Counted from the first letter of the stretch, positions 6,831-36,440 are shown. The stretch: 64,000 bases of DNA from Gemmatimonadaceae bacterium (GCA_040902085.1 JBBDXY010000002.1:20471-84470), one strand, 5' to 3'. Notes: generated by a model from the sequence alone, not told the origin. Program-made: numbers and translations.

Positions 6831-6833
6831 CGC

Positions 6834-19009: not shown

Positions 19010-19010
19010 T
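18967..19010 (+). repeat. att-type direct repeat, copy 1 (44 bp, tRNA-Pro anticodon loop to 3' end)
   Basis: AATGGGGTTCAGGGGGTCGCGGGTTCAAATCCCGCCGTCCCGAT, identical at three sites. Confidence 0.9.
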
Positions 19011-19023
19011 GGTTAGATAAGTG

Positions 19024-19066
19024 AAAGGCTCACAGGCGATTACACCGCTTGTGGGCCTTTGGTTTT
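19024..19066 (+). terminator. Rho-independent terminator-like hairpin after the tRNA-like gene
   Basis: 15-bp stem AAAGGCTCACAGGCG / CGCTTGTGGGCCTTT (two G-U pairs), 7-nt loop, followed by GGTTTTG. Confidence 0.5.
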
Positions 19067-19076
19067 GTCTGTCGTA

Positions 19077-19100
19077 AATCCAACCGTCAATAGTCTTATC
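19077..19100 (+). repeat. Tandem TCAATAGTCTT(A/G) motif, two copies
   Basis: TCAATAGTCTTA TCAATAGTCTTG, located about 85 bp upstream of the 19184 HTH ORF and about 70 bp after att copy 1. Confidence 0.7.
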
Positions 19101-19183
19101 AATAGTCTTGGTGAGGATCCACCAGTCGGGACGCGAACAGTTGAGCACGTTTGATTAAGAGAGCATGCCCACACTAACTGGGC

Positions 19184-19579
19184 ATGAAGATCACCACGCT
19201 CATGCCTGACTCGTTGCCGTCCACGTGGCGCGAACGAGCTCACTACTTACGAGAGTACGGCGACTCCAACACAGCGCGACTCTGGGAGCTTGCGGCTCGG
19301 GAGCTTGAGGCCGCGCTAGTGGCTCACGGTGAGGAGACTCTCACTCTCGTCGAAGCTGCGAACCTGTCCGGATTCACAGCGGATCATCTGTCGGCCTCGA
19401 TCAAGAAGGGTCGGATTCCGAACGCTGGGCGTGATGGTGCTCCTCGTATCCGTCGAAGCGATCTGCCCATGAAGCGGATCGGTGGGCCCGGACGACCATC
19501 ACGCGCGGAGTCTCCTCAAGCAGATGCTGAGCGGGCGCAGGTGAGAAAGATTGCCCAGTCGTTCACGAGGAAGCGTTGA
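19184..19579 (+). CDS. Putative HTH DNA-binding protein (excisionase/MerR-like)
   Basis: TLVEAANLSGFTADHLSASIKKGRIPN resembles an excisionase-type HTH, and the C-terminal tail is basic. Confidence 0.45.
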   Translation: MKITTLMPDSLPSTWRERAHYLREYGDSNTARLWELAARELEAALVAHGEETLTLVEAANLSGFTADHLSASIKKGRIPNAGRDGAPRIRRSDLPMKRIGGPGRPSRAESPQADAERAQVRKIAQSFTRKR

Positions 19580-19940
19580 CCACAACGAGACCGACCGACA
19601 GCGACTAGGCAGGCTTGCTGCGACCCCTCGCCGGGAGTTAACATCGTGCGCCGAACACCAGCTCCCTCCCCGACGGAGATTCGCATGAGAACCTTTCTCA
19701 ACGCAAAGAGACTGGAGTTGTATCAGACCCCGCTTATTCTGCACATCGCTCGGCAGAATGGCGGCCAGATTGGGCGAGCAGTCCTTCGAGGCGGTTCGCT
19801 AACGTGGTATACCGGCAACGCGCAAAAAGGCCATCGCGTAAAGTGGGCCAAGCTTGGAGCCTTGATTCAGAGTTCGGTGCCGAAGCGGAAAAAGCGGAAG
19901 GTCCGGGGCAAGTAGGTCCGTCCGTTCGGATCACGGCTTC

Positions 19941-20213
19941 CTAGCTGATCGTCCCTCGAACAGGTAGTCTCACCACTACGGACTGGACGAAAGCCGACGA
20001 GGGCGCAATTCCGTGCTTGTGGTTGTAGCGGTCAATGGCTCGGTCGATTGCTTCCTCTGCCGTCTTCCCGTTTGAAACGGGATAGAACTTCGGCGGTTCG
20101 CCCGGCCCGGACGTGCGGCACCAGTGAACCATGTAGCCGTAGTCGCCGCCGTCAGTGTGCAGGGTTAACCCGTGGTCGGCCAGGAATCTCCAGCGCTGGG
20201 CGTCGGTCGGCAT
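19941..20213 (-). CDS. Small hypothetical protein (90 aa), abutting the upstream TIR-like gene
   Basis: Its ATG (20213) directly follows the stop codon (20214-20216) of the TIR-like ORF. Confidence 0.45.
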   Translation of the reverse strand: MPTDAQRWRFLADHGLTLHTDGGDYGYMVHWCRTSGPGEPPKFYPVSNGKTAEEAIDRAIDRYNHKHGIAPSSAFVQSVVVRLPVRGTIS

Positions 20214-21242
20214 CTATCCTATGTCGAAGTAGCTCACCGAAGGCGGGATGCCCGTGACTCTTCCACCCTTTTTGGGCTTCTTGTTCAGGCGGTCGAGCAA
20301 TCGTTCAAAGAGGTAGTCCAGCAAAGCCTCTGAGCTGAGAGGCTCGTCCTTCTTGGGAACCTGCCACACAACGCGATCTACGTAGTCGATTGTCGGGGTC
20401 ACCCCAAAGTCGCCCAGTTTGGTCGGCCCGCCACCCCAGCCCGGTGAGTACATGAATCGCCCGCCCCACTCGACTACCAACAAACCGGCGCCGTGTAAGC
20501 TGTTCGAGTACTCCGGCTGCCAGTAAAGGACGAAGCTCCCAACAGGGCTTGATGCCGCAATGCTGCGGTAATTGGAGTCATTCTTCAGGAACTCCAGCCC
20601 TAAGCCAGGGGAAACCGCAGCGAGTTCCGGGACACGCTTGGCCAGCAGCTCACCGAGGCGCGTTATCTCGTCCCCTGCCGCTTTGAAGCCCGCGACCGAG
20701 CGTCCGAAGAGCTGTTTCCGTTCTTCGAAGTCACGCTCACGCTCTGCACGGGCGGCTCGCTCGAGCACCGAGTCCTGTTTCGGGCGGCCGCCTAGTTCCG
20801 TGACTCGGTTGTCAATCGTTGCGAGCAGGCCTTCGATGCCGAACTTGGCATAGCCGTACCAAATCTTGGTCGAAGGAATCCACTTGGGCGGCTTCGCGTC
20901 ATCGAGGCAAACAACGATCAGGAAGTCCCATCCGTGTTCAAGTGCCCGCTCCTTGATCGCCGATTCCTCTATGTGCGTATAGCCAGTTTTGCCCCACCCG
21001 TCGCTGTGCAGAACGACACACACGCGGCTCTCATATCGAAAGATGTTGGTGAACGCCTCGACGCCATCAGTGTTGCGCCCGATCACCTCTCGCTGTTCTC
21101 GCGAGTAGACGAACGTCGAGAGGCGATCCGTGAGGCCATCGCTGACGCGCAACGCCGCGGCCTCGTGAGCACTTAGAAAAGAGAACGCTACGTCGTAGCG
21201 GAATTCGTCGGTCATCATCAGAGACAATTTAGCGGCTGACAA
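20214..21242 (-). CDS. TIR-like domain protein with unknown C-terminal domain
   Basis: The N-terminus YDVAFSFLSAHEAAA...RVCVVLHSDGWGKTGYTHIEESAI follows the TIR_2 pattern: (Y)DVFxSF strand, then hydrophobic strand-W-x-E helix. The roughly 200-aa C-terminal region is unassigned. Confidence 0.55.
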   Translation of the reverse strand: MSAAKLSLMMTDEFRYDVAFSFLSAHEAAALRVSDGLTDRLSTFVYSREQREVIGRNTDGVEAFTNIFRYESRVCVVLHSDGWGKTGYTHIEESAIKERALEHGWDFLIVVCLDDAKPPKWIPSTKIWYGYAKFGIEGLLATIDNRVTELGGRPKQDSVLERAARAERERDFEERKQLFGRSVAGFKAAGDEITRLGELLAKRVPELAAVSPGLGLEFLKNDSNYRSIAASSPVGSFVLYWQPEYSNSLHGAGLLVVEWGGRFMYSPGWGGGPTKLGDFGVTPTIDYVDRVVWQVPKKDEPLSSEALLDYLFERLLDRLNKKPKKGGRVTGIPPSVSYFDIG

Positions 21243-21329
21243 CTGGCGAGAGCGGGGCGGTTCGAGACTCCTACTGATGAAGCGCGCTACTTAGATTGTT
21301 TCTTTGGGCAGCCACGCGCAGGAGGCACA

Positions 21330-21605
21330 ATGAGTCTGCATACTAAGGACGGGCGACCTCTCCAAGTCTCGGGCGACACGGTGTATAGCGGCTCCGGCCA
21401 AGTTGTGGGCCGTATCAGGGACGACAAGGTTTACGGCACCGACGGGCGCTACATTGGAACGATCACGAGCGGTCGGTTGGTGCACCGCTCGACCGACAGC
21501 GCCGGAATAGGCTCTCCGTTCGCGTCGGCCAACCGCGGCGGCTCCGGCCAAGCACGCGTTGGTGGCTCAGGTCTCTGGGGCGACGAACCAAATATTCCGG
21601 ACTGA
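21330..21605 (+). CDS. 4-fold beta-flower-like small protein
   Basis: Repeated short strands of the type G(D/Q)xVYSGSGQVVGRI / DKVYGTDGRYIGTI / SGRLVH. Confidence 0.4.
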   Translation: MSLHTKDGRPLQVSGDTVYSGSGQVVGRIRDDKVYGTDGRYIGTITSGRLVHRSTDSAGIGSPFASANRGGSGQARVGGSGLWGDEPNIPD

Positions 21606-21710
21606 TCATTCCCTTCGGTCCAAGTCCGACTCCAGCGCTCCTCGTTCAAAGAATCGGGAGACCTCCGTGATAAGGAATCGACATCCCGGACTGGCTCAGG
21701 ATGGGTTATT

Positions 21711-22433
21711 GTGGATCACGACGCCAATCCTCTAGCGAGTCACCAAATGGCCTTTCCGTACACGGTTACAATCGCCGGGCTCGTCGCAACGATTCGACAG
21801 CTTCGAAGCGCGTTCCCGAGTCAGGTTACTCCTGACACCCTGAGAAGGTGGGGTATCGCTCCCAACAACGAGACATACGTCCTTCACATTCTCAGGTTTC
21901 TAGGAATCATTGACGAAGAGGGGAAGAAGGTCGCAGAGAACGCGAAGATTTTTTCCGAAGTTGATGACGAGGCATTTGCGAAGCGGTTCTCTGCGCTAGT
22001 TCAAACGGCATATGAGGGACTATTTGAGCATTACGGCGACAAGACTTGGACGCTAGACCGTCAGAAGCTGATCGGGTTTTTTCGTGGGGCTGATGACACC
22101 AGCGCGCGTGTCGGATATCAGCAAGCGGCAACGTTTGAGGTTCTAGCCAGCCTCGCTGGGCATGGAGCCCCTCCCGCCGAAGCGAAAGCGACTCCAACTA
22201 GAGCCAGAAAGTCCGTTCCCAGTCCTCCTTCCAGTCGCAAGGAAAGGACTCCCGCTCCTGCTCGCGGCGAGGCGCACACACCTGCGCCTCCGAAGGTGCC
22301 CGAAAACACTCCTCCGGCTGGCAGTCCCGCGTTGACGGTGCGAGTCGAGATAAACCTTCCGGTCACCGATGATCAGGAGGTCTACGACAAAATCTTTCGC
22401 AGCATCAGGACAAACCTTTTGCTGAATGAGTGA
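21711..22433 (+). CDS. DUF5343-like protein
   Basis: QVTPDTLRRWGIAPNNETYVLHILRFLGIIDEEGKK resembles DUF5343. Its 3' end overlaps the next gene by 8 nt. Confidence 0.5.
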   Translation: MDHDANPLASHQMAFPYTVTIAGLVATIRQLRSAFPSQVTPDTLRRWGIAPNNETYVLHILRFLGIIDEEGKKVAENAKIFSEVDDEAFAKRFSALVQTAYEGLFEHYGDKTWTLDRQKLIGFFRGADDTSARVGYQQAATFEVLASLAGHGAPPAEAKATPTRARKSVPSPPSSRKERTPAPARGEAHTPAPPKVPENTPPAGSPALTVRVEINLPVTDDQEVYDKIFRSIRTNLLLNE

Positions 22434-22908
22434 CGTCTGGCGCGCCTTTGAATGGATTGTTCGAAACGCAACTCGGTTTACCGATGCACCTCCGATCGTG
22501 GAAGCGCAGCATCCATTCGACGTCCGAAATATCCATCCTGCTCTACCGGGAATCGTGAAGAGCCTTTTCGACAGTACCCATTACGCGCAGGCCACTTTCG
22601 AAGCCTTCAAGTTTCTCGACAACGAGATAAAGCGGCACTCCGGCTTGGACAAAACCGGCAAACAACTGATGATGGCGGCGCTTTCAGAGGTGTCCCCGCT
22701 AGTGCAGCTCGCCCCGCTCACAACTGATTCGGGGCGAAACGAGCAGGAGGGGTACAAGTTCATTTTCGCCGGAAGCATGATGGCGATACGCAACCCCCGG
22801 GGGCACGAGCACAGTTTGGTAGACGACATCGATACGTGCCTCGATCACCTCACCCTCGTCTCACAATTACTTCGACGACTTGCGCAGGCGGGGTACTCAA
22901 CTCTATAG
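22426..22908 (+). CDS. TIGR02391-family (HEPN-type) protein
   Basis: YAQATFEAFKFLDNEIK...GKQLMMAALS...NEQEGYKFIFAGSMMAIRNPRGHEH matches the TIGR02391 layout and contains an Rx4H motif. Confidence 0.65.
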   Translation: MSDVWRAFEWIVRNATRFTDAPPIVEAQHPFDVRNIHPALPGIVKSLFDSTHYAQATFEAFKFLDNEIKRHSGLDKTGKQLMMAALSEVSPLVQLAPLTTDSGRNEQEGYKFIFAGSMMAIRNPRGHEHSLVDDIDTCLDHLTLVSQLLRRLAQAGYSTL

Positions 22909-23064
22909 GGATGATTCCATCTGATTATATTTGAGGTGTATCGACCGCTTCGGTGACCGAGTCATTTCTCTCGTATCGCCGCGTCGTCGGTATTCCGACA
23001 CCGGCGCCCCCAGTGACTGCTGGCGGGACCAAGGATCGGATCTCAGCACGAAGGAGTTGGGATC

Positions 23065-23265
23065 ATGGCGAAGCAGCCACCGAACCACGGAAAGCCGTGG
23101 ACAGGGCCCCAGGTGAAGCAACTCGAGTCGTTGGCCAAGGGTAACACTCCAACGCGCATTATCGGTCTGAAGCTTGGCCGAACTGAGGACTCGATTTACG
23201 CAAAGGCGAGCGACGAAAACATCTCTCTCGCGCCGACGAACCAACGTCCCTACAACAAGAAGTAA
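23065..23265 (+). CDS. Small hypothetical protein (66 aa)
   Basis: ORF with a GNTPTRIIGLKLGRTEDSIYAKA HTH-like segment. Low certainty. Confidence 0.3.
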   Translation: MAKQPPNHGKPWTGPQVKQLESLAKGNTPTRIIGLKLGRTEDSIYAKASDENISLAPTNQRPYNKK

Positions 23266-23390
23266 CTCTCCCGACGGAACAGAAAGGAGCGGGAAGGTGC
23301 TCGAATCAAAGGCCTTCCCGCTCTTTCCGCGTCGTAACGCCAGAGTAGGGATCCGATTCCCTTTCCGAGAGACTATGGATATCAATAGTC

Positions 23391-23400
23391 TGGACCCGAA
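23391..23400 (+). repeat. TCAATAGTCT motif copy
   Basis: Exact 10-mer, 110 bp upstream of att copy 2. Confidence 0.6.
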
Positions 23401-23509
23401 TCTCCCGAATTTCTTTCCCATCGATCCCTTGAATTCGGACGCCAAACTCCGGTAATTACGGAGGGGAAAGCGCGAGTTCACGCGCGGTTGCGATTTCGGT
23501 CTCTAGGTC

Positions 23510-23553
23510 AATGGGGTTCAGGGGGTCGCGGGTTCAAATCCCGCCGTCCCGAT
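23510..23553 (+). repeat. att-type direct repeat, copy 2
   Basis: Identical 44-mer; no tRNA body lies upstream of it. Confidence 0.9.
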
Positions 23554-23721
23554 TTTGTAAGTGATTGAATTAGCACGAGATGAGAGCGGGAGCCCTGAGT
23601 ACTCGGAGTTTCCGCTTTTGCTGAATGGTGCGATAATGGTGCGGTCGAGTTTTTTCGATTGGCATCCGTTTGAACCATCAAATCAACTCACGCGACTTTC
23701 GGTCGCGGAGTTCGGCAAGAG

Positions 23722-24948
23722 CTACTGAGACTGCAAGTCCGGCGGAGACTCTACGACAGTTTGGAGACCTATGCTGGAAGCGATGTGTCGCGGGTCGTTG
23801 TTGTTCGATACCTCCTCACCATCAATGAACCCGGTGACCACCGAACCAGCAACGGCTTCCAGATCGCGTGACACCCGATAGTTTTGCTTTCCCTCTCGCA
23901 CGACGTAGTGCAAAACGGCCGGCATCGTTTTCGACCAGCCCGCAGCTGCTTCCATCGCCTTTCTTCTCGATCGATAGCGAAGTCGGTACAGAAACCGTAA
24001 CTGAAGCCGCGCGTGGGGGTGCAGCCAATCAGCGCGAATTGGCACCCCGGTCATGAACAGTGGCGCGGGCGGTTCGAATTCAGAATGCCACCCAAACCGT
24101 TCCACGCGTTGGTTGGCGAAGATGCGGGGAGGGTCCAGGCAGACTGCAAAATGCGTCTGGCCTTCAACGAGTCTTTCGAGTGCTCGACTTATCGGCCGAC
24201 TGTTTACTTTGTGTCGGCCTTTGATCTCCTTATAAGTCTCGTAAGCGAGAAGGTCTGCTGCTTGAAGTGGTACTGCGACACGACTATCCCCGAAGCTGAT
24301 ACGGTCGCTGTTTGGAACTGTGTCAAATCCGCGTCGGTTGCTGAGGTCTCTCGCACGTTCGAGTGCGTCCTGAAACTCCTCCTCCATTCGCTGCTGTCGC
24401 GTGGGCTGGCGGTCGAACACAAACTGCATTGTCGCCCCGTCTCCCGCGTGGTGCGCGCAGACGGCAGTTGCTAATAGGCAAGACATCCCCACGGCGTTGA
24501 AGAATCCATATTCTTCATATCCCTGAACGTCTGGGAGTTCGACGGCGGTCGCGATGCCATGCATTGACTTTGGGGGACAATCGTCGGTAATCACGCCGAT
24601 TAGCGCCTTTGTCAGGGTGTCACATTCATCTCGCGTCCATTTTGCGAACTCGCCCTTCCGCTGACGACAATCGCTCGTTTTGAATTCCGTAATCGGATGG
24701 GGAGCGTCTCGCAGAACGGCTGTCCACTTTGGGATAAAGTGGCGTTCCCACACTTCGTCAGAGGCTACATAGCCTGCGATGACGAAGATGCTTCCAAATC
24801 GCGAGTCTTCATACTTATGGCGGCTATCGTCAAAATAGCCAACGAGCCTCGCAGCGATCTGTTGCTCAACGGCGCACATGTCTATTGTCTCGGGTCGTGG
24901 CCAATCCAATGGGGAACGCACCGAAATGGAGAGTCTCCGGTGTTGCAA
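23722..24948 (-). CDS. DUF3800-like protein
   Basis: Has VGYFDDS...IFVIAGYVA at the N-terminus and the PLQAADLLAYE motif typical of DUF3800. The start may be the internal MCAVEQQ. Confidence 0.55.
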   Translation of the reverse strand: MQHRRLSISVRSPLDWPRPETIDMCAVEQQIAARLVGYFDDSRHKYEDSRFGSIFVIAGYVASDEVWERHFIPKWTAVLRDAPHPITEFKTSDCRQRKGEFAKWTRDECDTLTKALIGVITDDCPPKSMHGIATAVELPDVQGYEEYGFFNAVGMSCLLATAVCAHHAGDGATMQFVFDRQPTRQQRMEEEFQDALERARDLSNRRGFDTVPNSDRISFGDSRVAVPLQAADLLAYETYKEIKGRHKVNSRPISRALERLVEGQTHFAVCLDPPRIFANQRVERFGWHSEFEPPAPLFMTGVPIRADWLHPHARLQLRFLYRLRYRSRRKAMEAAAGWSKTMPAVLHYVVREGKQNYRVSRDLEAVAGSVVTGFIDGEEVSNNNDPRHIASSIGLQTVVESPPDLQSQ

Positions 24949-25160
24949 GCTAGCGTTAATCGATCATGTGGTCTAACGATTCGTTCCAACTGACAACAGA
25001 ACTGCGAGATTGCACGCGGCGGGGGGGCGCCCCTCTAATTGGATTCCATTGCGGGTGGAAACCATGCCCGGTAGGCAGCACGCCTGGGCGCCGTGTCCGC
25101 ATATAGGAAGATGGCGGCTCAAGCTTTGATTATCTTGACCACCCAGCACGGAGAGGAGGA

Positions 25161-25553
25161 GTGATGCCGCACGAACGGTTCCGAGCGTCAGTGCAATACA
25201 ACGACTTTGTCGGCTCGTCCGCTGCGGACAGAGCAGGCATAGGAGGGCCCGAAGACTGGCTTCGCGAGAGGAAGCTGATGCAGTCGGATGATTTTGTGCT
25301 AGGAATTGAGATCTGGGCGGGCGAAAACGACGGCGTACACCGCGATCCAATCACTGTGCATTTTCTTCTTGTGAAGGGATCATTTGACTCTGCTAAAGAA
25401 ACCATTGGGAGTTCATCGCGCCGTGTTCCCGTGCGACGAGTTACTGTTGACATAGGCGTAGCCGAGTTTATGGGCCTCTTTAAGCGTTTCAGCGTGGCCA
25501 TCTCTCCTGGTGGAATGCTGAATGACAAGACCTACGAGTATACTGAAGAGTAG
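25161..25553 (+). CDS. Hypothetical protein (130 aa)
   Basis: Good SD (GGAGAGGAGG) upstream. No family recognised. Confidence 0.4.
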   Translation: MMPHERFRASVQYNDFVGSSAADRAGIGGPEDWLRERKLMQSDDFVLGIEIWAGENDGVHRDPITVHFLLVKGSFDSAKETIGSSSRRVPVRRVTVDIGVAEFMGLFKRFSVAISPGGMLNDKTYEYTEE

Positions 25554-26124
25554 ACTCACCGGACGCAGGACCTATGCGGCGCCAAACCCGTTGCGATTCC
25601 ATACTGTGCGATACATCGATACCGCTTTTGCGCACCTGTCTTTTGCGATAAAACTGATGCAGGGTGCCGAAGACGGGCTAGTTGATCTCGAGTCCATAGA
25701 TACGCCGCTTACCATCAAAGATGGTGCATCGTTGCTGGTCTTGCCTGATCGGGTTCTCCACGATCGTGACGAACTCATCAATGCGTGCCAAAACTTCGTC
25801 ACAATTACTTATGGCGCCGCTGCGATCACTCTTAATCGCTGTCGCGAAGAAGCCAGCGTTCCTCTGCCAAACCCCATTGTCAGCGAATGCGATCAGTGGA
25901 TTGCTTTAGTCTATCAAGCCCGAAATGTCTTCGCGCACGATATAGCGGAGCCACGCTGGCGAATTAATCCACGGTACGGCCGCAAATACATGGTTGGGAA
26001 TGTCCAAGCCGATTTGCGAAAACTCGATGGAGTCGTTTTCGATTACGCGGACATCGGTGGCGTGGACGCACTCTACAATCTCAAGGCGTATGGGGAAGAA
26101 CACGCTTTCGGGCGGATGCCGTAA
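25522..26124 (+). CDS. HEPN-motif protein (200 aa)
   Basis: Contains VYQARNVFAHDIAEPRW (Rx4H). Overlaps the previous ORF by 32 nt; start uncertain. Confidence 0.45.
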   Translation: MTRPTSILKSRLTGRRTYAAPNPLRFHTVRYIDTAFAHLSFAIKLMQGAEDGLVDLESIDTPLTIKDGASLLVLPDRVLHDRDELINACQNFVTITYGAAAITLNRCREEASVPLPNPIVSECDQWIALVYQARNVFAHDIAEPRWRINPRYGRKYMVGNVQADLRKLDGVVFDYADIGGVDALYNLKAYGEEHAFGRMP

Positions 26125-26203
26125 ATCGATTGTCCATAGCCCCTCTCTACCTGTACGGCCTCACTAAGCCCCTAGCCGTCATCGCGCCCCATCCCAATGA
26201 AGT

Positions 26204-26476
26204 TTGACCTTTTGCGCTCGCTTGACCGGCGTCGGCGGCATGTACGCGACCAAAGACGTGATAACCCGCCTCGCAATCCTCTCGGGCGATCCCTCCACAC
26301 GAACGTTCGGGCGAACCCCCTTGAAACTGGGTCGGCTGATGGACCGGATAGATAGCGAATTAGGATTGCTAAAAAAAGTGAACCATCGAGCCTATCGCGA
26401 TCTCTCAGCTGGCGGTCCAAATGTCTGGACCCTCGCCGCGTTCGACGAGCGGCAGGCCGAGTATATCGCCGCTTAG
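26204..26476 (+). CDS. Possible small hypothetical protein
   Basis: ORF only; the internal start MYATKDV is plausible. Confidence 0.2.
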   Translation: MTFCARLTGVGGMYATKDVITRLAILSGDPSTRTFGRTPLKLGRLMDRIDSELGLLKKVNHRAYRDLSAGGPNVWTLAAFDERQAEYIAA

Positions 26477-26733
26477 CGGTCCGGAAACCAGTCGCTAGAG
26501 TCGAACGCACGTGAGTCAAACGAAGAATTGATGCGCTTTGTCGATTCGTCTCACGGCGGGTTGGGCACATTTGGGCCTCGCGTTCGCTCAAAACGTCGAA
26601 GCGACGGGCAGCTCGGTGGCATCCACAATCGGCCAAACTGTGGCTCGCGACCTAGAGGACAGCGAACATACTTTTCTTGCCGGTTACATCGTGGCGGATG
26701 AACTACAAGTCATAGCTCTTCTGTGGCTGGGAA

Positions 26734-27696
26734 TCATGGGTCATAACTTTTCTTTTCTTTCGCTACCACTACAAGCCGAGTCGCGAATATCCCAGCGACG
26801 AAGCCTCCTAGTGCGCCCAACCATCCCCAGTCCCATCCGGTTAGAAAACCGGCCACGAAGACAAGGGCAGCTTGGATTAGCGCACCGTCTCGCACTGCAA
26901 CTGTGAATCGTTGCGAAGAGTGAAGGTTGGTGTACTCCCATTGGCGCAGGGAATAGCGCATCAGCATTGGGATCACGAAGCCCGTCAGCGCACCAAGGGC
27001 ACCCGACGAAGAAGCGCCGATTATCGTCGTTGCCAATAGAATCGGGTAAAAGGCCAGACGCAAATACCTTTCTAGATCCGTTTTCTGTGCGGGCCCTCGT
27101 CCTAATTGAATCGCCATCTGATAGTAGCGAACTTGGGATCGTCTCCATCGCTCGTACGCTTCGTAAGAAGGCGATCCTCCGGAATTAACCGACACATATT
27201 CAGCAAGATCCGCGATTGCTGTTTGAAGCGCCAATAGGTATTCGAGAGCAACGGACGGGCTCGGGAAAATAGCCGTCGCGCGATGCATCTCACTAACCAG
27301 TGTGGTCGCACGTTGCGCGTGTAGTTCTAGTTCCTTGCGGACGCTGGCGTAGTCGACATGCTGTTGACGCTGGATGACTGAGTCAAGGCGCATCACTGCG
27401 CTCTCCAAACTGCGCAGATCGGCCTCGAAACCCAGATTCACCTTCGCTTTGTCCGTACCCTGTAACTCTTCAGGAGTGTGGGGGTCGGTCGCAAGGCTTG
27501 TAGACTCAATAGCTGATGGTGTTTCTGGGTTGAGCCGGTTTGGTTGACCGGACTCTGCCTTCAGAGAGTAGAGGACACGACCAGTTTTGAAGTCGAGAGA
27601 TTCATCAATGTTGTCGGCACCTCCCATGGGCAGTACTCGATCATCTGCTTCATCGGCTGATATGCGGACCATTCCACAGATTGCGCCGGAGTCCAA
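26734..27696 (-). CDS. Hypothetical protein with C-terminal transmembrane helices (operon gene 5)
   Basis: Hydrophobic segments are FYPILLATTIIGASSSGALGALTGFVIPMLM and ALIQAALVFVAGFLTGWDWGWLGALGGFVAGIFA. The annotated start overlaps gene 4 by 136 nt, so the start is uncertain. Confidence 0.45.
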   Translation of the reverse strand: MDSGAICGMVRISADEADDRVLPMGGADNIDESLDFKTGRVLYSLKAESGQPNRLNPETPSAIESTSLATDPHTPEELQGTDKAKVNLGFEADLRSLESAVMRLDSVIQRQQHVDYASVRKELELHAQRATTLVSEMHRATAIFPSPSVALEYLLALQTAIADLAEYVSVNSGGSPSYEAYERWRRSQVRYYQMAIQLGRGPAQKTDLERYLRLAFYPILLATTIIGASSSGALGALTGFVIPMLMRYSLRQWEYTNLHSSQRFTVAVRDGALIQAALVFVAGFLTGWDWGWLGALGGFVAGIFATRLVVVAKEKKSYDP

Positions 27697-28052
27697 CCCG
27701 GCGGTGTTACAAATGGATCAGGCCCTTTTCCTTTCAGCCAAACGCGACTGATTCCATCGTGAACGCCTCCTTCCAGCCAGACACACAGCCCAAGGAAACC
27801 TTGATCTTGGACGATCACGGCTACATCCACGCAATAGTCGCCGCGAAGGTAAACCAACCCGTTGACGCTGAGATGCTTCACCCATGCTTCGGTTGCCTCG
27901 TCCGATATGAAACCAACCCGAGTAATTATGTCGTCTGTACAAAAGGTCTTGTTCGGGCAGTCAGCTTTATATTGTTGAACGCCACCAGCGTATTTCTCTG
28001 ATAGAAGGCTGCATGAGACTATGACGCTATAGGCTTCGACTAGGACGCTCAT
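27561..28052 (-). CDS. Hypothetical protein (163 aa, operon gene 4)
   Basis: Globular-looking ORF (MSVLVEAYSVIV...CPNKTFCTDDIITRVGFIS...). No named family. Confidence 0.45.
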   Translation of the reverse strand: MSVLVEAYSVIVSCSLLSEKYAGGVQQYKADCPNKTFCTDDIITRVGFISDEATEAWVKHLSVNGLVYLRGDYCVDVAVIVQDQGFLGLCVWLEGGVHDGISRVWLKGKGPDPFVTPPGWTPAQSVEWSAYQPMKQMIEYCPWEVPTTLMNLSTSKLVVSSTL

Positions 28053-28112
28053 TTGATCTCGTCCGGGGAACTCATCGGACAGCGAGACTGGGGGGATTCG
28101 TACGAGATCGTT

Positions 28113-28970
28113 TTAACATGGGGGATTAGACGTTGTGATCGAAGTGAGTTGCTGCAGCGGGTACTCACCAAGCATGACGAGACGCTGGCCGATCAGAAGT
28201 CCGCCCCATTCCTTCGCCGCCAGAATTGTCGCTTCTTGACCATTGACCAGCGTCCGCACTTCCGACAGAACTTGCTTCTTTCCCTCGGCAAGCTCTTCCA
28301 GGACTATCCGGGCACGCGCTTGCTCTGAGAGACGCATATGCGGAAGCAGCAGGTACCCAGTTCGTGGGGGCGACATTGGCTCATATCGCTTCTTTCTCGT
28401 CTCTCTCCAGAGGTAGGGTGCGGCAGGACCAAGGACGGACCGATCGATCTGTTTCATTAGTCTTACGGCCAGAGCTAGACACCGCAAAACAGCCTTATAC
28501 GAGATGTGCCGGTGCTTGTGGTCGTTCCAGCTTTCTGGGAGCACTTTGTGGCTGATGTCTTGGTTCCGCTTCTCCTCCAATCTATTCTTGCGAATGGCCG
28601 TGGCAAAGGCGCGTACCTCAGACTCAAAGGCTTGCAGCTTGGTCGCCGCAAAATGAAATGTCAACTGACCAATCTTTTGCTCGGCAAGCTCTGATAGTCG
28701 CGCTACAAGCTCATCTTCGATTTTGGTGGAGAGTACATCCAAAAAGATGAGATCGCGATTTGCCAAGTCCGCCTTCAGGTCCGCCGTACGCAGGCGATTA
28801 GCCTGCGCACGCAAACTGCGCCATAGCGTCCATGACGTGATTACTTCGCCCACTTCACCGCGCAGGTTGGAGATTAGGTGGTGCGTATCGGTCTGGTGGA
28901 CACGAAGCTTCTGCTTGCTCACGCTACGTAGTACCGAAGAATGGTGAAATTCTGCCTCGCCCGAGGGCAC
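28113..28970 (-). CDS. HEPN-motif protein (285 aa, operon gene 3)
   Basis: Contains EEKRNQDISHKVL (Rx5H). Its start lies 3 nt after the stop of gene 2. Confidence 0.45.
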   Translation of the reverse strand: MPSGEAEFHHSSVLRSVSKQKLRVHQTDTHHLISNLRGEVGEVITSWTLWRSLRAQANRLRTADLKADLANRDLIFLDVLSTKIEDELVARLSELAEQKIGQLTFHFAATKLQAFESEVRAFATAIRKNRLEEKRNQDISHKVLPESWNDHKHRHISYKAVLRCLALAVRLMKQIDRSVLGPAAPYLWRETRKKRYEPMSPPRTGYLLLPHMRLSEQARARIVLEELAEGKKQVLSEVRTLVNGQEATILAAKEWGGLLIGQRLVMLGEYPLQQLTSITTSNPPC

Positions 28971-28973
28971 GCG

Positions 28974-29570
28974 TCATGCGTCGGGGAGGCGACCACCGTT
29001 GCTACTGCATTTTACAAGTCGGTCGTGCAGGTCCCGTATTGCATCGAGAATGGGCGTCATCTCGAAGCGCTTGCCGATAACCTCGAATACACCAACATCA
29101 GTGTAGTAGGCACGGAAAAGAAAAGTCGGCACTTCTGGCTCCTCGCCAAGCGGCCCTACGTACGTCGGAAGGATACGACCAGCAATGAGATTCTCGCAAA
29201 AAGCGTCCAATCTCTCATCGAAGTGCTCCAGGGCGTTCCGTAGATCTCGGTTGTAGAGGGAACTGTCATCACGAACGCCAAGGCCGACCCGGAGCCGCTC
29301 TCCTCGCGCTAAATGAAGCGGCTTCTTTGAAGATGGCCACAGGTATCGGGATACCGCTCCGGCCTGGAGCGCAATTACTTGGACACCGTTCACGATTGCC
29401 AGCGCACTCTCCTGCCATTCGGACGAATCTGGGGAGTAGAGGCCGCCAGCCTCCAGCGCCGCCTGGACGCTGCTTGCTGAGTCGAGTGCCGATGCTGTGT
29501 TGAAGAGCATCGCCTCAATGTAGAACGCCTCGTGGAGCGGCCATATACCTGTGGCTGAATGCTGGCTCAT
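28974..29570 (-). CDS. HEPN-motif protein (198 aa, operon gene 2)
   Basis: Contains NRDLRNALEHFDERL (Rx4H). A 9-nt gap with AGGA separates it from gene 1. Confidence 0.45.
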   Translation of the reverse strand: MSQHSATGIWPLHEAFYIEAMLFNTASALDSASSVQAALEAGGLYSPDSSEWQESALAIVNGVQVIALQAGAVSRYLWPSSKKPLHLARGERLRVGLGVRDDSSLYNRDLRNALEHFDERLDAFCENLIAGRILPTYVGPLGEEPEVPTFLFRAYYTDVGVFEVIGKRFEMTPILDAIRDLHDRLVKCSSNGGRLPDA

Positions 29571-29579
29571 TCCTGAGTG

Positions 29580-30281
29580 TTAGGAATAGTTGGACGGCTC
29601 CCTTGAAGGGCCGCCCTTGTCAGGAATTGTCTCGAATCCATACGAATTCAGGATCGCTCCCAGCAGCGATTCGGCCGCGTAAATGAAGTCGTGGGACATT
29701 TTCGCCATTCGGTTAGCGAGCTGGGTGAGCCGTGACCGCATCTCTTCCTCAGTGTCGGTGAGCCCGGGGCCGACGAATGTCATAGCAGCTAGCGCGTCGG
29801 CGAGCACGAAATGGAGATAGCGCGAAGAGCTACCGCGCCCTGTGGCGAATACACATTCCTCTGTGATAGTCAGCTCGCCCAAAAGACGCTTAGTCTCAGT
29901 CGGGTCGAAGTGCGAAACAGCCTGGTTTCTGAGTGGCGCGATATGCTTTTCTAGGAGTTCGCGATTGCCAGCGTCTTTCCAAACTGCGGCGAGTGCGTCG
30001 AATTCGCTGTAGTTGCGGAAGTAGCGACCGATATGCTGCTTTGCGAAGTCAACAGCCTCAAACAGTGTAGCAGCAGCCACAAAAATCGTATTGAACTCCT
30101 GGCGCGAGGCGTACGTGCGGTGCTCGTCCTTCGCGATACCGTCGATGGCGTGTCGCGCAAATCTGAGTTGATTGAGCGCGCGCGACAGAGTCACGCATGC
30201 AGCAAAGGCATCATCTCTACGGAGCCAGTCGTAGCGGCGTGGTATGCACGCGGCTTTCCACGGATCGTCCTCAGGACCCAC
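29580..30281 (-). CDS. HEPN-motif protein (233 aa, operon gene 1)
   Basis: Contains IAPLRNQAVSHFD (Rx5H). It is the first gene downstream of the integrase, on the same strand. Confidence 0.45.
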   Translation of the reverse strand: MGPEDDPWKAACIPRRYDWLRRDDAFAACVTLSRALNQLRFARHAIDGIAKDEHRTYASRQEFNTIFVAAATLFEAVDFAKQHIGRYFRNYSEFDALAAVWKDAGNRELLEKHIAPLRNQAVSHFDPTETKRLLGELTITEECVFATGRGSSSRYLHFVLADALAAMTFVGPGLTDTEEEMRSRLTQLANRMAKMSHDFIYAAESLLGAILNSYGFETIPDKGGPSREPSNYS

Positions 30282-30449
30282 TGAAGCGCATCGATGGAAG
30301 GGTGGATCGCCGTCTTCTGGGCCAGTTGAGGTGCGGGCTGTTCGTCTCTAGAAGCATCGGTCCGAATCCGCCTCACACTGTTCGAGTCTAGGGCCGTTGG
30401 GTGCGAGGTGGAATCATCGCCTGTGCTGCTGGTATTTTCAACGGCACGA

Positions 30450-31631
30450 TTAGGCGGCAGCGTCATCGGGCATTATTCTCAGGGGTAGGGACAACAACTG
30501 ACTTAGCTTCGCGGTTGCGCTTACCTGCATGGTCGGGGCGACGTGGGAATACGTGTCCAAGGTCTGGCGAACGCTACTGCGGCCCAGCTGCTCCGCTACG
30601 ATCTTCGGATTCTCACCTGCTCCAAGAAGCAACGTCGCCGTGGTGTGGCGAAGGTCGTAAATTCGAATGCGGGGCAAATTGGCACGTTTCAGAATCACGC
30701 GAAACGAGCGGCGCAGATTCTTGCTATCCAACGGAGTTCCGTTCGCTGTGCAAAACGCCAGGCCGCGCATTGCTGGATCGAGCGGGCACATTCGTAAGGA
30801 AGCCGCCTGGTCAATCCGATGCTGCTTCAGGGCCGCGATGACCATCTCGTCCAGTGGGATATTGCGGCGACTCCCAGCCGTCTTCGTTTTGCCGAAAATC
30901 GGTTTGTTGCCAACCCAAACAACGGCGCGCTGAACAGTAACCAGGCCGTCCGCCAGGTCCGACCATCGAAGAGCGAGCGCTTCACTTGGACGAAGCCCCG
31001 TCACGACAAGTAGCGCCCACAGAGCGGAGTTGGCGTCGTCTCGCGCAGCACTCAGGAACAGCTTGGCTTGCAGTGGCGTGAGGGCTGCCATTTCCTTTCG
31101 TTCCGTCCGTGGTAGCTGAACGCCTGATGCTGGATTCTTTACCAAAATGTCGTCGTCTACGGCCTCACGGAGCGCGCGATTTACCAAGGCATAGAGGACC
31201 CGAATACTGCGGGGGGAAAGGCGACGTTCTTGTTCAGGTCCGCGAAGATCGAGTAGCCACCGTATGACATCGTCCCGGGTCAAATTGGAAAGCAAGATTG
31301 AGCCAATCGCATTTCTCGCCACGTGATTGCTGAGCATTGCTCGGTAGTCGACGAGGGTACGGGGTCGCACTGCCTCGGCCGCCTCACGCTTGCGAAGCCA
31401 GGCGTCTACCATCTCCAACAGCGTAACCCGCTTTCGCTTCGTGGAGATGCCACTGGCCACCAGCTGAAGCGCCGCGTTCAACTCCTTCTGCGCATTACGG
31501 CGGGAACCGTGAACGACCTTCGAGGGGTAAACACGACGCCCGCATTGGCGGCTCGCAATTGGATCAAGCCAGCGGATGCGAAATCGCTCTCGTCCAAGCG
31601 GTGTGATGCTCCCTTCATCCTTCGATCGCAT
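30450..31631 (-). CDS. int: Tyrosine-type site-specific integrase
   Basis: C-terminal catalytic signature LRPSEALALRW, IYDLRHTTATLLL and LGRSSVRQTLDTYSH. Start trimmed to the ATG at 31631 (GGGAG SD), 7 nt after the Rep stop. Confidence 0.85.
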   Translation of the reverse strand: MRSKDEGSITPLGRERFRIRWLDPIASRQCGRRVYPSKVVHGSRRNAQKELNAALQLVASGISTKRKRVTLLEMVDAWLRKREAAEAVRPRTLVDYRAMLSNHVARNAIGSILLSNLTRDDVIRWLLDLRGPEQERRLSPRSIRVLYALVNRALREAVDDDILVKNPASGVQLPRTERKEMAALTPLQAKLFLSAARDDANSALWALLVVTGLRPSEALALRWSDLADGLVTVQRAVVWVGNKPIFGKTKTAGSRRNIPLDEMVIAALKQHRIDQAASLRMCPLDPAMRGLAFCTANGTPLDSKNLRRSFRVILKRANLPRIRIYDLRHTTATLLLGAGENPKIVAEQLGRSSVRQTLDTYSHVAPTMQVSATAKLSQLLSLPLRIMPDDAAA

Positions 31632-31638
31632 AGTCTCC

Positions 31639-32754
31639 CTAAGCAGCGCGCAGAACGCGCGCACTACGTAATTCGCGTTTGTGTCGGCGTATGTCGGCAG
31701 CAAAAAGCCAGAAATGGACACCGTCTGCGCCGGAATGCTCGGCGGCCTCTAAGAGTGAGAGCGCTCCTAAGTGCTCGCCGTTGACAAGATTCCACTGGTC
31801 GACGGTCAGCTCAGCCACCAGCTCGCCACCTACCTGCTCAGCGGCTAGTTCCTCGTCTGTTTTGTCATTCACAGCGAAGCGGGTTTTTAGTCCCTTGCTC
31901 CACGTAAGTGCTCGGGTGCCTTTGCTAGCGCGCTCCCACTCGCGCCATAGCTCAAGGTCGCTACAGTCCTCATTAGCCGCAAAAGCGCGGAGCACTTGAA
32001 ACGGAGTCCGGCCCTCGCGTCGGGCGGCTTTCAAGTCGTGACGCGTCATTTCCATGCCGACACGCTGGTGGCTTTGGTCCGTCATTACGATCTTCTGCAC
32101 GTACTGAGCGACGCGACGCGACGTGATTGCCTCGATAGGACACAACCCGATTAGCGGCGCTCGATAGCCTACGGCCTCGACGGCGCTCATCCATCGAGCG
32201 AATAGATGCGCGTGGAGTGTGCGAATCTCGTCGGGGGAGAGCTGTCGGTCGCAAAAGAAAATCACATGCAAATGCGGGTGCGCACCGGCTTTGCCGAACG
32301 TTGTTTCACTCGCGCGGATGCAGCCAGAAAGCGAGTAGTCGAGTTTATCCGCCATGTAGCCGCGTCCGCTTATCACCTTGCGAAATGCATTCGCAACAGA
32401 CTTGAGCATTGGCCCGAGCGCGTCACCGAAATCGTGTGGGAGTGTGAAGGTTTGGAAAAGAGCGAAGTCGCCCGCTTCTAAATGCGTGCGGAGTGCTTTA
32501 TCAATCTCAGCGGCGCGACGTTGCCGGATCTTCGGCGCGCACACGGGGCAGCTATGCACGGAGCCGCAGCATCGCACATTCGCAAAGTGTGCGCGCTGAT
32601 CGTTGACGACCACCCTAACCTTGTCGCCATTTATCCGGCGGCGGCCGCACGTCTGGAGCCTTTTGTCCGAGGATTCATTCCAAAGCACGGAGCGGAGTTG
32701 ATAGCGCTCCCGCCGGCGTTCTTTCTCCCCTATGGCGGAAACACTACTCGTCAT
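31639..32754 (-). CDS. rep: Rolling-circle replication initiator (HUH, Rep_1/RepSA-like)
   Basis: Cys cluster CGSVHSCPVCAPKI, HUH motif HPHLHVIFF, and Tyr motif VAQYVQK. I trimmed the 521-aa ORF to the ATG at 32754 because the upstream extension overlaps the Xis-like ORF. Confidence 0.65.
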   Translation of the reverse strand: MTSSVSAIGEKERRRERYQLRSVLWNESSDKRLQTCGRRRINGDKVRVVVNDQRAHFANVRCCGSVHSCPVCAPKIRQRRAAEIDKALRTHLEAGDFALFQTFTLPHDFGDALGPMLKSVANAFRKVISGRGYMADKLDYSLSGCIRASETTFGKAGAHPHLHVIFFCDRQLSPDEIRTLHAHLFARWMSAVEAVGYRAPLIGLCPIEAITSRRVAQYVQKIVMTDQSHQRVGMEMTRHDLKAARREGRTPFQVLRAFAANEDCSDLELWREWERASKGTRALTWSKGLKTRFAVNDKTDEELAAEQVGGELVAELTVDQWNLVNGEHLGALSLLEAAEHSGADGVHFWLFAADIRRHKRELRSARVLRAA

Positions 32755-32914
32755 GTTATCAAGGCGGGCAAAAGCACCTGCCCGCTTCGCGGGCTTCTCT
32801 ACGCTCACTGCGCTCGCTGTCGCGCTCCGCGCGGAACTACCACCGACCGCAGCGCACGAGCGCGCTGGATACAACAGAGGGATCGTCGCGCGCCTCGGAG
32901 CCGAGGCCGGGAGT

Positions 32915-33124
32915 CTATTGGCCGTCACGACGCCAGCCTCCAGGCAGCGCCTTGCCGCCTCGCCCAACCCATTCAGCCAGAGCGTTTGGATCGACGCGGA
33001 GTTGACGAACCAGCCGAACGACTGGCAGAACGCCCGACCGCACAAGACCGTAGGCGCGCTCTGGAGAAATGCTAAGGGTCTTCGCGACCTCAGGAATCCG
33101 AAGGAGCTGCATGACTGCCTCCAA
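32915..33124 (-). CDS. xis: Excisionase/AlpA-family HTH protein
   Basis: LLRIPEVAKTLSISPERAYGLVRSGVLPVVRL is a typical excisionase-type winged HTH. Confidence 0.6.
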   Translation of the reverse strand: MEAVMQLLRIPEVAKTLSISPERAYGLVRSGVLPVVRLVRQLRVDPNALAEWVGRGGKALPGGWRRDGQ

Positions 33125-33213
33125 AAAAGAGATTGTGACTCACACGACATGTGCGAGTGCAATTCTTCCTCTGAGACAGGAGCGGGGTATCTGAGAAGAA
33201 GCATTTTCTGCTT

Positions 33214-34197
33214 CTACTGCGACAAAATGTTTTCGGCGGTCTCTTTGCCAGGCCGCAGCCGTAGATCGAGGAGTTGCGCGGTCTTTGTTAGACCGCCATG
33301 AACTGTTTGATACGCAGCGTTTCGCCGCCGGTCGCTCTTCGCCGCGTAGCTGCCCCTCTTGTGAGCGCGGGTGCCGGAATCAGGAATTACGGCAGACTTC
33401 TTTGGCGATTTAACTTTGCGCGGATTGCCGCGGCCGTATTTCTTCGCAATTTTCACCGTTGTCCAATTCTGGCACTGCCAACGGACGAGCCATTCAAAAT
33501 GCCGAAATGAATCTGAGTCTTTTCCGGATTTTCGGATTTCCGGAGTCTTGGTCCAGCCCGCTTTTTCGGCGCTTTGTTCTACGCGCGTTAGATATCCTGC
33601 CAAAGAAGAGTTGAACTCCGCCTTTATTCTCTGGCCGAATGCTTTTCGGGTCTCGTTTGTTATTTTCCAGCCGAAATCCGAAAATAAAAAAGGCTGTGGA
33701 ATCATTTCCGCTTTTTTGGCGGATATTGGCGCCGTAAAGCGAAGTGGCGGTCCCCCGACCACATCTCTTCCTGTCCAATGGAAAAGCGTTCGCAAAACCA
33801 TATTTCGGACCCAATCAGCGTCGAGGCTATGTTTTTCTATCCAAGCTTCAAGCGACGCCAGAAGGGCTGCGAATTCATTTCGGGCGTTTTTTGCGCGACT
33901 CCGGAGTGTTTTGGCATCCAGCGAAAGCAGCTCGGACTCATCCATTAAAGTTCTAACGCCCTCGTAATTCGGTCGCACTGATTCTGCCAGATCGACTAGC
34001 ACTTCTTGCGCGACCTCTTCGATCTTCTGGATAAACTCCAATTGGGCGTAAAGCTTGGCTTTGTCGAAAAGCGTCGGATGGGAGTACTCACCGAAACCGA
34101 TTCGTGTCGGTTGCGGGACGGGAAGGGAAGTCGATTTCGCTTTATCCGCTTTATCGGCGAGTTTCTTTTTGGGCGCTACCGGGATAAATGGTGCCAT
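33214..34197 (-). CDS. Hypothetical protein (327 aa), first gene inside the right-hand att
   Basis: Protein-like ORF with a basic C-terminus. FRHFEWLVRWQCQNWTTVKIAKKYG suggests an HTH. No family assigned. Confidence 0.45.
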   Translation of the reverse strand: MAPFIPVAPKKKLADKADKAKSTSLPVPQPTRIGFGEYSHPTLFDKAKLYAQLEFIQKIEEVAQEVLVDLAESVRPNYEGVRTLMDESELLSLDAKTLRSRAKNARNEFAALLASLEAWIEKHSLDADWVRNMVLRTLFHWTGRDVVGGPPLRFTAPISAKKAEMIPQPFLFSDFGWKITNETRKAFGQRIKAEFNSSLAGYLTRVEQSAEKAGWTKTPEIRKSGKDSDSFRHFEWLVRWQCQNWTTVKIAKKYGRGNPRKVKSPKKSAVIPDSGTRAHKRGSYAAKSDRRRNAAYQTVHGGLTKTAQLLDLRLRPGKETAENILSQ

Positions 34198-34335
34198 TTA
34201 TGGTGCGATCTCCGCCAAACCTCGTTGAGCTCGGAACAACTCACGAGCAGAAGGAATGGCGGGAACTCAAGCAATTGCGCGACTTAGGTCAAGTGGGAAC
34301 ACCTCATGAAAACTCAGCAGACGTCGCGGTTTTCA

Positions 34336-34379
34336 AATGGGGTTCAGGGGGTCGCGGGTTCAAATCCCGCCGTCCCGAT
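34336..34379 (+). repeat. att-type direct repeat, copy 3
   Basis: Identical 44-mer; no tRNA body lies upstream of it. Confidence 0.9.
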
Positions 34380-34418
34380 TGATGGTAACTGCATGCAACC
34401 AGTTGACTTCTCAGTCCG

Positions 34419-36161: not shown

Positions 36162-36238
36162 CTTAAATGTAGCTACATTTTATACGGGCGCAAGGGCCGT
36201 AGGGTGCCATTGACGTGATGCCTAAATGTGGCTACAAT
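36162..36238. promoter_or_regulatory. Two C(T/C)TAAATGT(A/G)GCTACA boxes (first is a 16-bp perfect palindrome) in the divergent transposase / RHH-RM intergenic region
   Basis: AAATGTAGCTACATTT lies at 36165-36180. The second box (36221-36236) overlaps the -10 of the promoter below. Box spacing is 59 bp. Confidence 0.5.
36210..36238 (+). promoter_or_regulatory. Sigma70-type promoter for the RHH-RM operon
   Basis: TTGACG (36210-36215), 17-nt spacer, TACAAT (36233-36238). Confidence 0.5.
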
Positions 36239-36440
36239 AGGGCCTGTGAAACGACAGGCCAGGCAGGGAGCCCCCAAGAAGCCCGCCAGACTACGAAAGG
36301 AGACCCTTTTGCGGTTTCGCGTTTCGGAGTCCGAAAAGGCTGCCGTCCGGAAGGCCGCGGAGAAAGCGCATCAGGGCGTGTCGGAGTGGCTTCGGCAGGT
36401 AGCCCTGCGAGAGGCAGGCGTGCTACCGGAGGCAAAATGA
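36228..36440 (+). CDS. Ribbon-helix-helix (CopG/MobC-like) small DNA-binding protein; true start probably TTG at 36309
   Basis: LRFRVSESEKAAVRKAAEKAHQGVSEWLRQVAL is a classic RHH strand plus two helices. AAGGAG sits 6 nt upstream of the in-frame TTG at 36309. The GTG at 36228 lies inside the predicted promoter. The stop overlaps the next ATG (ATGA). Confidence 0.5.
   Translation: MATIGPVKRQARQGAPKKPARLRKETLLRFRVSESEKAAVRKAAEKAHQGVSEWLRQVALREAGVLPEAK

Follow-up and report, generated by a model that had tools for sequence, protein, structure and literature searches.

A tRNA-Pro integrative element of a Gemmatimonadaceae bacterium with three putative HEPN-like genes as probable separate cargo modules

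A stretch of 64,000 nucleotides (nt) from a Gemmatimonadaceae bacterium (GCA_040902085.1 JBBDXY010000002.1:20471-84470), referred to here as the window, carries between positions 26,734 and 30,281 five consecutive genes, named A to E in their order of reading, which lie next to the integrase gene of a putative mobile element. In a preliminary description of this locus, the five genes had been taken as a single cargo operon, possibly an abortive-infection or toxin-type module, in which three proteins with the motif of HEPN ribonucleases (RNases) are followed by a small globular protein and a membrane protein. The question raised by the locus is whether these genes form one system or were brought together piece by piece. 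The reading favoured here, with a rough probability of 0.55, is that A to E are a mosaic of separately acquired modules of one or at most two genes in the cargo bay of an integrated element, and that A, B and C are stand-alone HEPN-like abortive-infection or toxin genes. The genes are listed below; positions are counted on the whole window, and coordinates and lengths are those of the longest open reading frames (ORFs), with a shorter form given where another start is supported.

29580-30281, minus strand: gene A, 233 amino acids (aa); putative stand-alone HEPN-like protein of a ~220-aa family
28974-29570, minus strand: gene B, 198 aa; putative HEPN-like protein
28113-28922, minus strand: gene C, 269 aa from a GTG supported by homologues (longest ORF to 28970, 285 aa); putative AbiU2-like HEPN protein
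27561-28052, minus strand: gene D, 163 aa; small soluble protein
26734-27627, minus strand: gene E, 297 aa from the ATG at 27627 called by NCBI (longest ORF to 27696, 320 aa); orphan with three C-terminal hydrophobic segments

Layout of the five genes and their occurrence elsewhere

A multi-gene system can be recognised by a set and an order of genes that are kept across divergent genomes. For A to E, only the adjacency of B and C recurs, and only at around 80% identity. A sister element found in soil metagenomes (L001/L002) shares the attachment (att) site, the integrase-Rep backbone, a cargo gene with an RNVFAH motif and gene A, the last being inverted in L001 relative to the backbone, and lacks B, C, D and E. 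In a second relative (L093), an unrelated 287-aa gene is followed by B (80% identical) and C (79%), with the att site ~290 nt past C and no A, D or E. In a third (L103), C (81% identical) is followed by four unrelated genes, D and E being absent. B and C are again adjacent on a contig of 2,389 bp to which both P0003 and P0006 belong.

The neighbourhoods of B were also compared at 80 genome loci across Pseudomonadota, Bacteroidota, Acidobacteriota, Gemmatimonadota, Nitrospirota, Verrucomicrobiota and other phyla, and a homologue of A, C, D or E was found near the B homologue at none of the 80. Homologues of C stand alone in six distinct contexts, beside Mrr, PDDEXK nucleases, a transposase or ordinary metabolic genes. 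When the profiles of A, B and C were run with hmmsearch against all ORFs of the fetched loci in search of distant HEPN neighbours, nothing was obtained below an E-value of ~0.3. Therefore, as the five-gene set is kept neither in the related elements nor elsewhere, the genes are not regarded as one system, and the part of the preliminary description that treated them as one operon-encoded system did not survive the comparison, since the homologues are not syntenic apart from the B-C pair of close relatives.

Its account of the layout itself was confirmed, with five co-directional ORFs on the minus strand placed directly downstream of the island integrase, which ends 168 nt before A on the upstream side. 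The gap between A and B is 9 nt, with AGGA just ahead of the ATG of B, that between C and D is 60 nt, and that between B and C is 3 nt if the longest C ORF is used. The real start of C is likely the GTG at 28922, which would widen the B-C gap to 51 nt, because all homologues begin at 'MSKQKLRV', residue 17 of the ORF in the window, and NCBI calls a protein of 269 aa. For E, the possible starts are the ATG at 27627 (297 aa, NCBI) and that at 27672 (312 aa, in the independent Logan assembly), so that the overlap with D is 67 or 112 nt, respectively, compared to 136 nt with the longest ORF. This overlap had been put down to a wrong start or a frameshift, and only the former stands: the sole homologue of D is a solo protein of ~140 aa without any E-like region, so the overlap reflects ambiguity in the start codon, and a frameshift or gene fusion between D and E, of which there was no sign, was discarded.

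Given their tight spacing, the five genes are probably co-transcribed. A scan of the region for promoters and terminators yielded counts not above those of shuffled sequence, with no terminator-like sites on the coding strand, and is not informative beyond chance. RNA elements and tandem repeats, such as those of type III antitoxins, were also sought in the region and none was found, the only Rfam signals being the tRNA-like att copies. Co-transcription of A to E would reflect packing in a cargo bay and not functional interdependence.

The two distal genes have few or no relatives. D had no family match in Pfam, PADLOC, NCBIfam or PHROGs, forms a singleton cluster and gave no relatives in a metagenome pattern scan; its one homologue, 35% identical, is encoded on plasmid 3 of Deinococcus deserti. 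E shows hydrophobic segments at residues 219-237, 264-285 and 292-313 by hydropathy, and its G+C content (GC) at the three codon positions (0.62/0.46/0.53) is coding-like and similar to that of its neighbours; no relatives were found in plasmids by tblastn or in the metagenome pattern scan. Tblastn searches with A and C against plasmids and against phages gave no match either. On these comparisons, D and E are best described as lineage-restricted passengers without a demonstrable link to A, B or C.

The tRNA-Pro element and its surroundings

The five genes lie within a segment bounded by copies of the 3' end of a tRNA gene, whose main features are the following.

23510-23554, plus strand: attL, left boundary of the 10.8-kb element, repeating 45 nt of the tRNA-Pro 3' end
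34336-34380, plus strand: attR, right boundary of the 10.8-kb element, repeating 45 nt of the tRNA-Pro 3' end
30450-31721, minus strand: tyrosine integrase of the element (PF00589, E 8.6e-19), 85% identical to the integrase of L001
31639-33204, minus strand: Rep_1-type replication initiator of the element backbone (PF01446, E 4.5e-9)
25522-26124, plus strand: cargo gene with the RNVFAH motif, 200 aa (172 aa per NCBI), shared with the sister element L001

The gene for tRNA-Pro(GGG) is located at 18940-19009, and the 45 nt of its 3' end recur at the two att positions. These two repeats are exact, and the copy within the tRNA gene (18967-19011) is 98% identical to them. The presence of three copies therefore points to two elements integrated in tandem at tRNA-Pro, of 4.5 and 10.8 kb. 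The first (19012-23554) holds a DUF5343 gene paired with a Ymh-HEPN gene, and no integrase was recognised in it. The second (23555-34380) contains a DUF3800 gene, the gene for the RNVFAH protein, E, D, C, B, A, the integrase, Rep_1 and a gene for a 327-aa protein, so that direct repeats of a tRNA 3' end flank an integrase-bearing segment, as in other tRNA-integrating elements. The identical att is present in L001 and L093, and the backbone (30450-34234) shares 78% identity with that of L001 over 3.8 kb.

Both statements of the preliminary description on the genomic context were upheld: that an integrated element carries the genes as cargo, by the att repeats around an integrase and Rep_1 backbone, and that the surroundings are rich in defence-type genes, by the Ymh-HEPN/DUF5343 pair, a type IIG restriction-modification (R-M) gene and DUF3800. 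In the pair of the first element, the DUF5343 gene (21711-22433, plus strand) overlaps the Hypoth_Ymh HEPN gene (22426-22908, plus strand), whose product is a HEPN protein confirmed by Pfam, and both together match the PADLOC models PDC-M34A (E 3.9e-20) and PD-Lambda-3_B / Aga_HEPN (E ~1e-15), which makes them a recognisable candidate defence pair adjoining the five genes. The type IIG-like R-M fusion, of 939 aa (36215-39034, plus strand), joins HSDR_N_2, N6_Mtase/Eco57I and Methylase_S domains. Just downstream of it, a 210-aa ORF (39330-39962, minus strand) has an 'RNKFAH' motif and no family match.

The product of the cargo gene at 25522-26124 has an Rx4H motif ('ARNVFAHD') and no family match, which makes it the fourth HEPN-motif cargo gene of the 10.8-kb element; it is 79% identical to its counterpart in L001. 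In the Logan assembly, C, E and this gene are carried on a contig of 10,833 bp, compared to 10,826 bp between the att copies, a length that would fit an excised circular form as well as a break of the assembly at the att repeat. Past the last att, low GC runs on to ~40.5 kb, which suggests a third, older insertion.

The families of A, B and C

A, B and C contain the motifs PLRNQAVSH, LRNALEH and KRNQDISH, respectively, and these, beyond what had been noticed in the three single proteins, are the conserved cores of their three families. When the ORFs of at least 100 aa are taken from all six frames of the window (37,881 aa), the pattern RNx3-4H turns up 10 times, and six of the 10 occurrences fall in the low-GC island at 19-40 kb. 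Judged from the sequences, the motifs of A to C are more than chance, because the pattern is rare in the window and, above all, because the R and the H are invariant or kept in at least 90% of the members of each family. In a survey of HEPN proteins, the active site is described as Rx4-6H at the end of helix 3, usually with N, D or H after the R, and conservation of the motif was tied to RNase activity (PMC3710099). The families of A, B and C agree with this spacing and with a polar residue after the R (PMC3710099), and in the AlphaFold2 models, which were made for B and C, the motif closes a core helix at its C-terminal end, where a loop begins.

No relationship was found when the three families were compared with each other by hhalign, in keeping with the preliminary description, which had seen no mutual similarity; an origin of A, B and C by tandem duplication was discarded on this profile-profile comparison. 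Its remark that no named defence system is recognisable also held, since PADLOC-DB v2.0.0, with systems up to 2023, gave no match at E<=1 save a chance-level DinG fragment, the only PADLOC match of A (E 0.036). Searches of the PDB with single sequences and profiles of A, B and C gave nothing, and no nucleotidyltransferase (MNT) antitoxin domain of the HEPN-MNT or HepT-MntA type was found in A to E or the flanking genes. The profile links that were obtained, all weak, point to families of the HEPN clan: AbiU2 for C; MtlR, DUF4145 and pEK499_p136 for A; and LA2681 for B.

For A, 11 close relatives were found in a word-indexed search and at least 524 representative clusters at E<=1e-3 in a full HMMER search. 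The family motif is 'LRNxxVFHFD', with R118 and H124 kept in at least 90% of 118 diverse sequences that are ~25% identical to A. Single members weakly match MtlR (E 1.7e-5; one of the 118), DUF4145 (1.7e-3) and pEK499_p136 (0.022). One family member combines the A-like region with a restriction-endonuclease-fold domain of the AHJR-like type (PF18743, E 9.5e-31), a nuclease fusion typical of conflict systems.

The C family comprises at least 374 homologue clusters, most of them more than 50% identical to the query and none with a Pfam domain. Its conserved motifs are 'NLRGEVGE' and 'KRNxDISHK', with R135 and H141 invariant and N136 kept in at least 90%. The model of C (predicted local distance difference test, pLDDT, 89.7) has an alpha-helical body and a small C-terminal beta domain, and the motif closes the helix 131-140, H141 being the first residue of the loop. 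HEPN_AbiU2 was matched weakly by five of 62 family members, with a best E of 7.7e-4. About half of the family are proteins of 350-370 aa with a conserved C-terminal extension of ~90 aa that is absent from C of the window. A small ORF that recurs upstream of C homologues was considered as an antitoxin and rejected, as these ORFs are mutually unrelated and one of them resembles, by eye, a PdxS (SOR_SNZ) fragment.

Some neighbours of C homologues are also of interest on their own. A 185-aa gene (L010, 9140-9697, minus strand), convergent with the solo C homologue P0198 and located beside an Mrr restriction gene, encodes 'VEVRHEIIHP' (Rx4H), has no Pfam match and is possibly another unannotated HEPN-like gene. 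After the C homologue of L103, a 294-aa protein (1170-2054) contains 'LLSAFAHGHAW', which resembles the 'LSGAAHGSY' of a DUF5677-type neighbour of B in L005; DUF5677-like genes recur near both the B and the C families.

The B family was found in 167 clusters and at least 187 species genomes. Its core reads 'SRYFWP ... DLRNALEHFDERLD', in which R111, E115, D118, E119 and D122 are invariant and N112 and H116 are kept in at least 90%. The model of B (pLDDT 93) is mainly helical; the motif closes the helix 108-115, with H116 at the break, and a four-stranded beta insert follows the motif helix. When this model was compared with the PDB, HepT-type HEPN toxins (5yep, 6m6u, 6m6w, 8xeh) appeared below threshold (E 1.5-4.3) among generic helical bundles. 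In the alignment by hhalign of the B profile with three LA2681 HEPN domains, the RN..EH motifs are in register, a weak match (E 0.0027, probability 11%).

In a Foldseek search of BFVD, the sole significant neighbour of B was an uncharacterised Gordonia phage protein (E 2e-6, template modelling score ~0.7). Temperate Gordonia phages (ZiggyZoo; Madeline, BFVD A0A514A2X7) encode B-family proteins of 163-188 aa with the motif 'AVRNHVEHFDDRLD', and gp33 of ZiggyZoo (L104, 3393-3884) is a family member with a profile E of 3e-22. The phage gene, after which comes an unrelated gene of 275 aa, lies in a reverse-strand block beside a serine integrase; in actinophages, such a block near the integrase is the usual seat of exclusion genes expressed by the prophage.

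The genes that flank B vary by locus and include RtcB, MmeI-type R-M, LA2681, DUF5677, AbiV, Abi_C, AbiEii, HigB, integrases and transposases. Together with the defence-type genes of the island and the phage-borne family members, such neighbours favour a role in conflict or defence. RtcB lies directly after B in seven Flavobacterium loci, out of 47 downstream neighbours scanned (E down to 2e-83), and these loci are phylogenetically clustered. RtcB is a ligase that reseals the 2',3'-cyclic-phosphate and 5'-OH ends left by HEPN RNases, and its position next to B suggests a cleave-and-repair pairing in Flavobacterium. In the loci from Flavobacterium and relatives (L045, L048, L049, L055, L058, L061, L064 and L085), the gene that follows B, at ~6600-8050, is ~475 aa long and begins 26-73 nt downstream.

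Alternatives and comparison with known systems

In the favoured reading, the region of 26.7-30.3 kb would be the variable cargo bay of the 10.8-kb element at tRNA-Pro, and a promoter located downstream of the integrase would drive the transcription of A to E. A, B and C would each act alone, probably, as known HEPN RNases suggest by analogy, in the form of a homodimer with a composite R/H active site. The proteins may stay latent until infection by a phage or a foreign element and then cleave tRNA, rRNA or mRNA (transfer, ribosomal or messenger RNA), leaving 2',3'-cyclic-phosphate ends, with a halt in translation and an aborted infection as the outcome. An equally open role would be that of an addiction toxin, which would stabilise the element by killing the cells that lose it.

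Several results weigh against this reading. Scans of A to E with Pfam, NCBIfam, PADLOC and PHROGs gave no meaningful match (for Pfam, none at E<=1), and the profile links to HEPN families lie below curated thresholds and come from few family members. The best Foldseek matches of the models in the PDB are not significant, with E 0.4 for B and E 0.8 for C, for which HepT/HEPN-MNT appeared at E 3.1. Functional coupling would equally be in line with the short gaps between A and B (9 nt) and between B and C and with the coding strand free of terminator-like sites, and at least two related contigs (L093 and the 2,389-bp contig with P0003 and P0006) retain B next to C. The HEPN fold is thus a plausible assignment, not a proven one, because there is no significant match to a solved HEPN structure and the profile links are weak, despite the conserved R...H. 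On balance, A, B and C are probably HEPN-like RNases.

The B-C adjacency, kept at ~79-80% identity in L093 and on the 2,389-bp contig, could mean that B and C are a true two-gene system, as a heteromeric RNase or as an effector and its regulator, with A, D and E as passengers. B would then belong to a family that partners variable second HEPN-like proteins, and B homologues do lie near genes of HEPN type or similar to it, among them LA2681 (L005, L088, L098), DUF5677 (L006, L005, L030) and, once each, AbiV, Abi_C and Ymh. This reading is unlikely: a C homologue was found at none of the 80 genome loci of B, most neighbours of B are locus-specific and have no HEPN-type Pfam match, and C is solo in all contexts beyond ~80% identity and, already at 81% (L103), has no B in the 184 nt available upstream. 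Moreover, the C family outnumbers that of B, with at least 374 clusters against 167, and HEPN genes are common in defence islands, where adjacency may simply reflect shared residence. A wider form of the same idea, in which B is a general partner subunit that would form heteromeric RNases with C/AbiU2-like, LA2681, DUF5677, AbiV, Abi_C or Ymh proteins and is coupled in Flavobacterium to RtcB, which would make the RNA damage reversible, is very unlikely; if true, it would describe a modular RNA cleave-and-repair immune switch present on phages, plasmids and integrative elements. That all five genes are one co-evolved defence system, of three HEPN RNases, a membrane effector and a small protein that serves as sensor or adaptor, would agree with their co-directional tight packing, with the coding strand clear of terminator-like sites and with a membrane protein at the distal end. 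It is nevertheless highly improbable, as the complete set was seen at no other locus, A moves on its own and has the opposite orientation in the sister element, neither D nor E follows C in the close relatives L093 and L103, E has no homologues and the only homologue of D is solo on a Deinococcus plasmid.

A different kind of doubt concerns the activity of the proteins. Some or all of A, B and C might be helical proteins other than RNases, such as non-catalytic HEPN-like regulators (as MtlR), antitoxin-like or anti-defence proteins, or an unrelated fold that conserves an R...H pair. The absence of significant fold or profile matches to catalytic HEPN proteins fits this possibility, as do the best single Pfam match in the A family, which is to MtlR, a regulator family, and the only significant structural neighbour of B, the uncharacterised phage protein. 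However, the most conserved positions in all three families are precisely the R, the following N and the H at HEPN spacing, and conservation of this motif is tied to RNase activity (PMC3710099). The genes occur on mobile elements and in defence islands, not in metabolic operons, and RtcB beside B fits RNA cleavage; it is therefore quite improbable that these proteins are not RNases. The favoured reading of stand-alone HEPN-like genes assembled as separate cargo is kept.

If this assignment is right, the families of A (at least 524 clusters), B (at least 187 species genomes) and C (at least 374 clusters) are candidate stand-alone HEPN-type abortive-infection RNases, and adding them to the models of defence finders would help to annotate defence islands better, above all in soil phyla. 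The locus also illustrates clearly how a small integrative element at tRNA-Pro swaps, and even inverts, single defence genes of its cargo between close relatives. No new kind of multi-gene system is revealed and no long-standing question is opened, so the value lies in annotation rather than surprise.

The element itself resembles other small tRNA-integrating elements with an integrase, a Rep protein and defence cargo in the duplication of a tRNA 3' end as att, in its conserved backbone and in a hypervariable bay of abortive-infection (Abi)-, toxin-antitoxin- and R-M-type genes. In this case, no conjugation, packaging or capsid genes were recognised, and mobility is predicted from sequence.

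Among single proteins, C is similar to AbiU2 of Lactococcus abortive infection (HEPN_AbiU2, PF18734) in size, in its mostly helical nature, in an Rx5H with N after the R and in being a stand-alone gene in mobile or R-M-rich contexts. In contrast to AbiU2, C has the invariant N-terminal 'NLRGEVGE' and the C-terminal beta domain, and C of the window itself does not match this family at E<=1. B is reminiscent of the LA2681-like HEPN proteins (PF18733), as its 'DLRNALEHFDERLD' differs little from 'DLRNHLEHKY' or 'DLRNALEHRF' of LA2681 and the two families are adjacent in three loci, whereas B, with ~200 aa, has a beta insert and is without the long N-terminal part found in LA2681 proteins (~500 aa). 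The HEPN family 'Bxe_C0808' is listed as 'in operon with AbiU2' in Table 1 of Anantharaman et al. 2013. That gene arrangement resembles B-C and, should B belong to this family, would speak for a B-C pair; the equivalence of B and Bxe_C0808 is an unconfirmed literature lead.

With ApeA, the anticodon nucleases PrrC/RloC, RnlA and the HepT toxins, the proposed shared principle would be a dimeric Rx4-6H site that cleaves RNA independently of metals and arrests growth on infection (PMC3710099), although A, B and C show no sequence match or significant structural match to these proteins, and no MNT, RnlB or R-M partner is adjacent. Mobile elements are well known to carry solo HEPN genes of the Abi or toxin type; the novelty here lies in three sizeable families outside current models.

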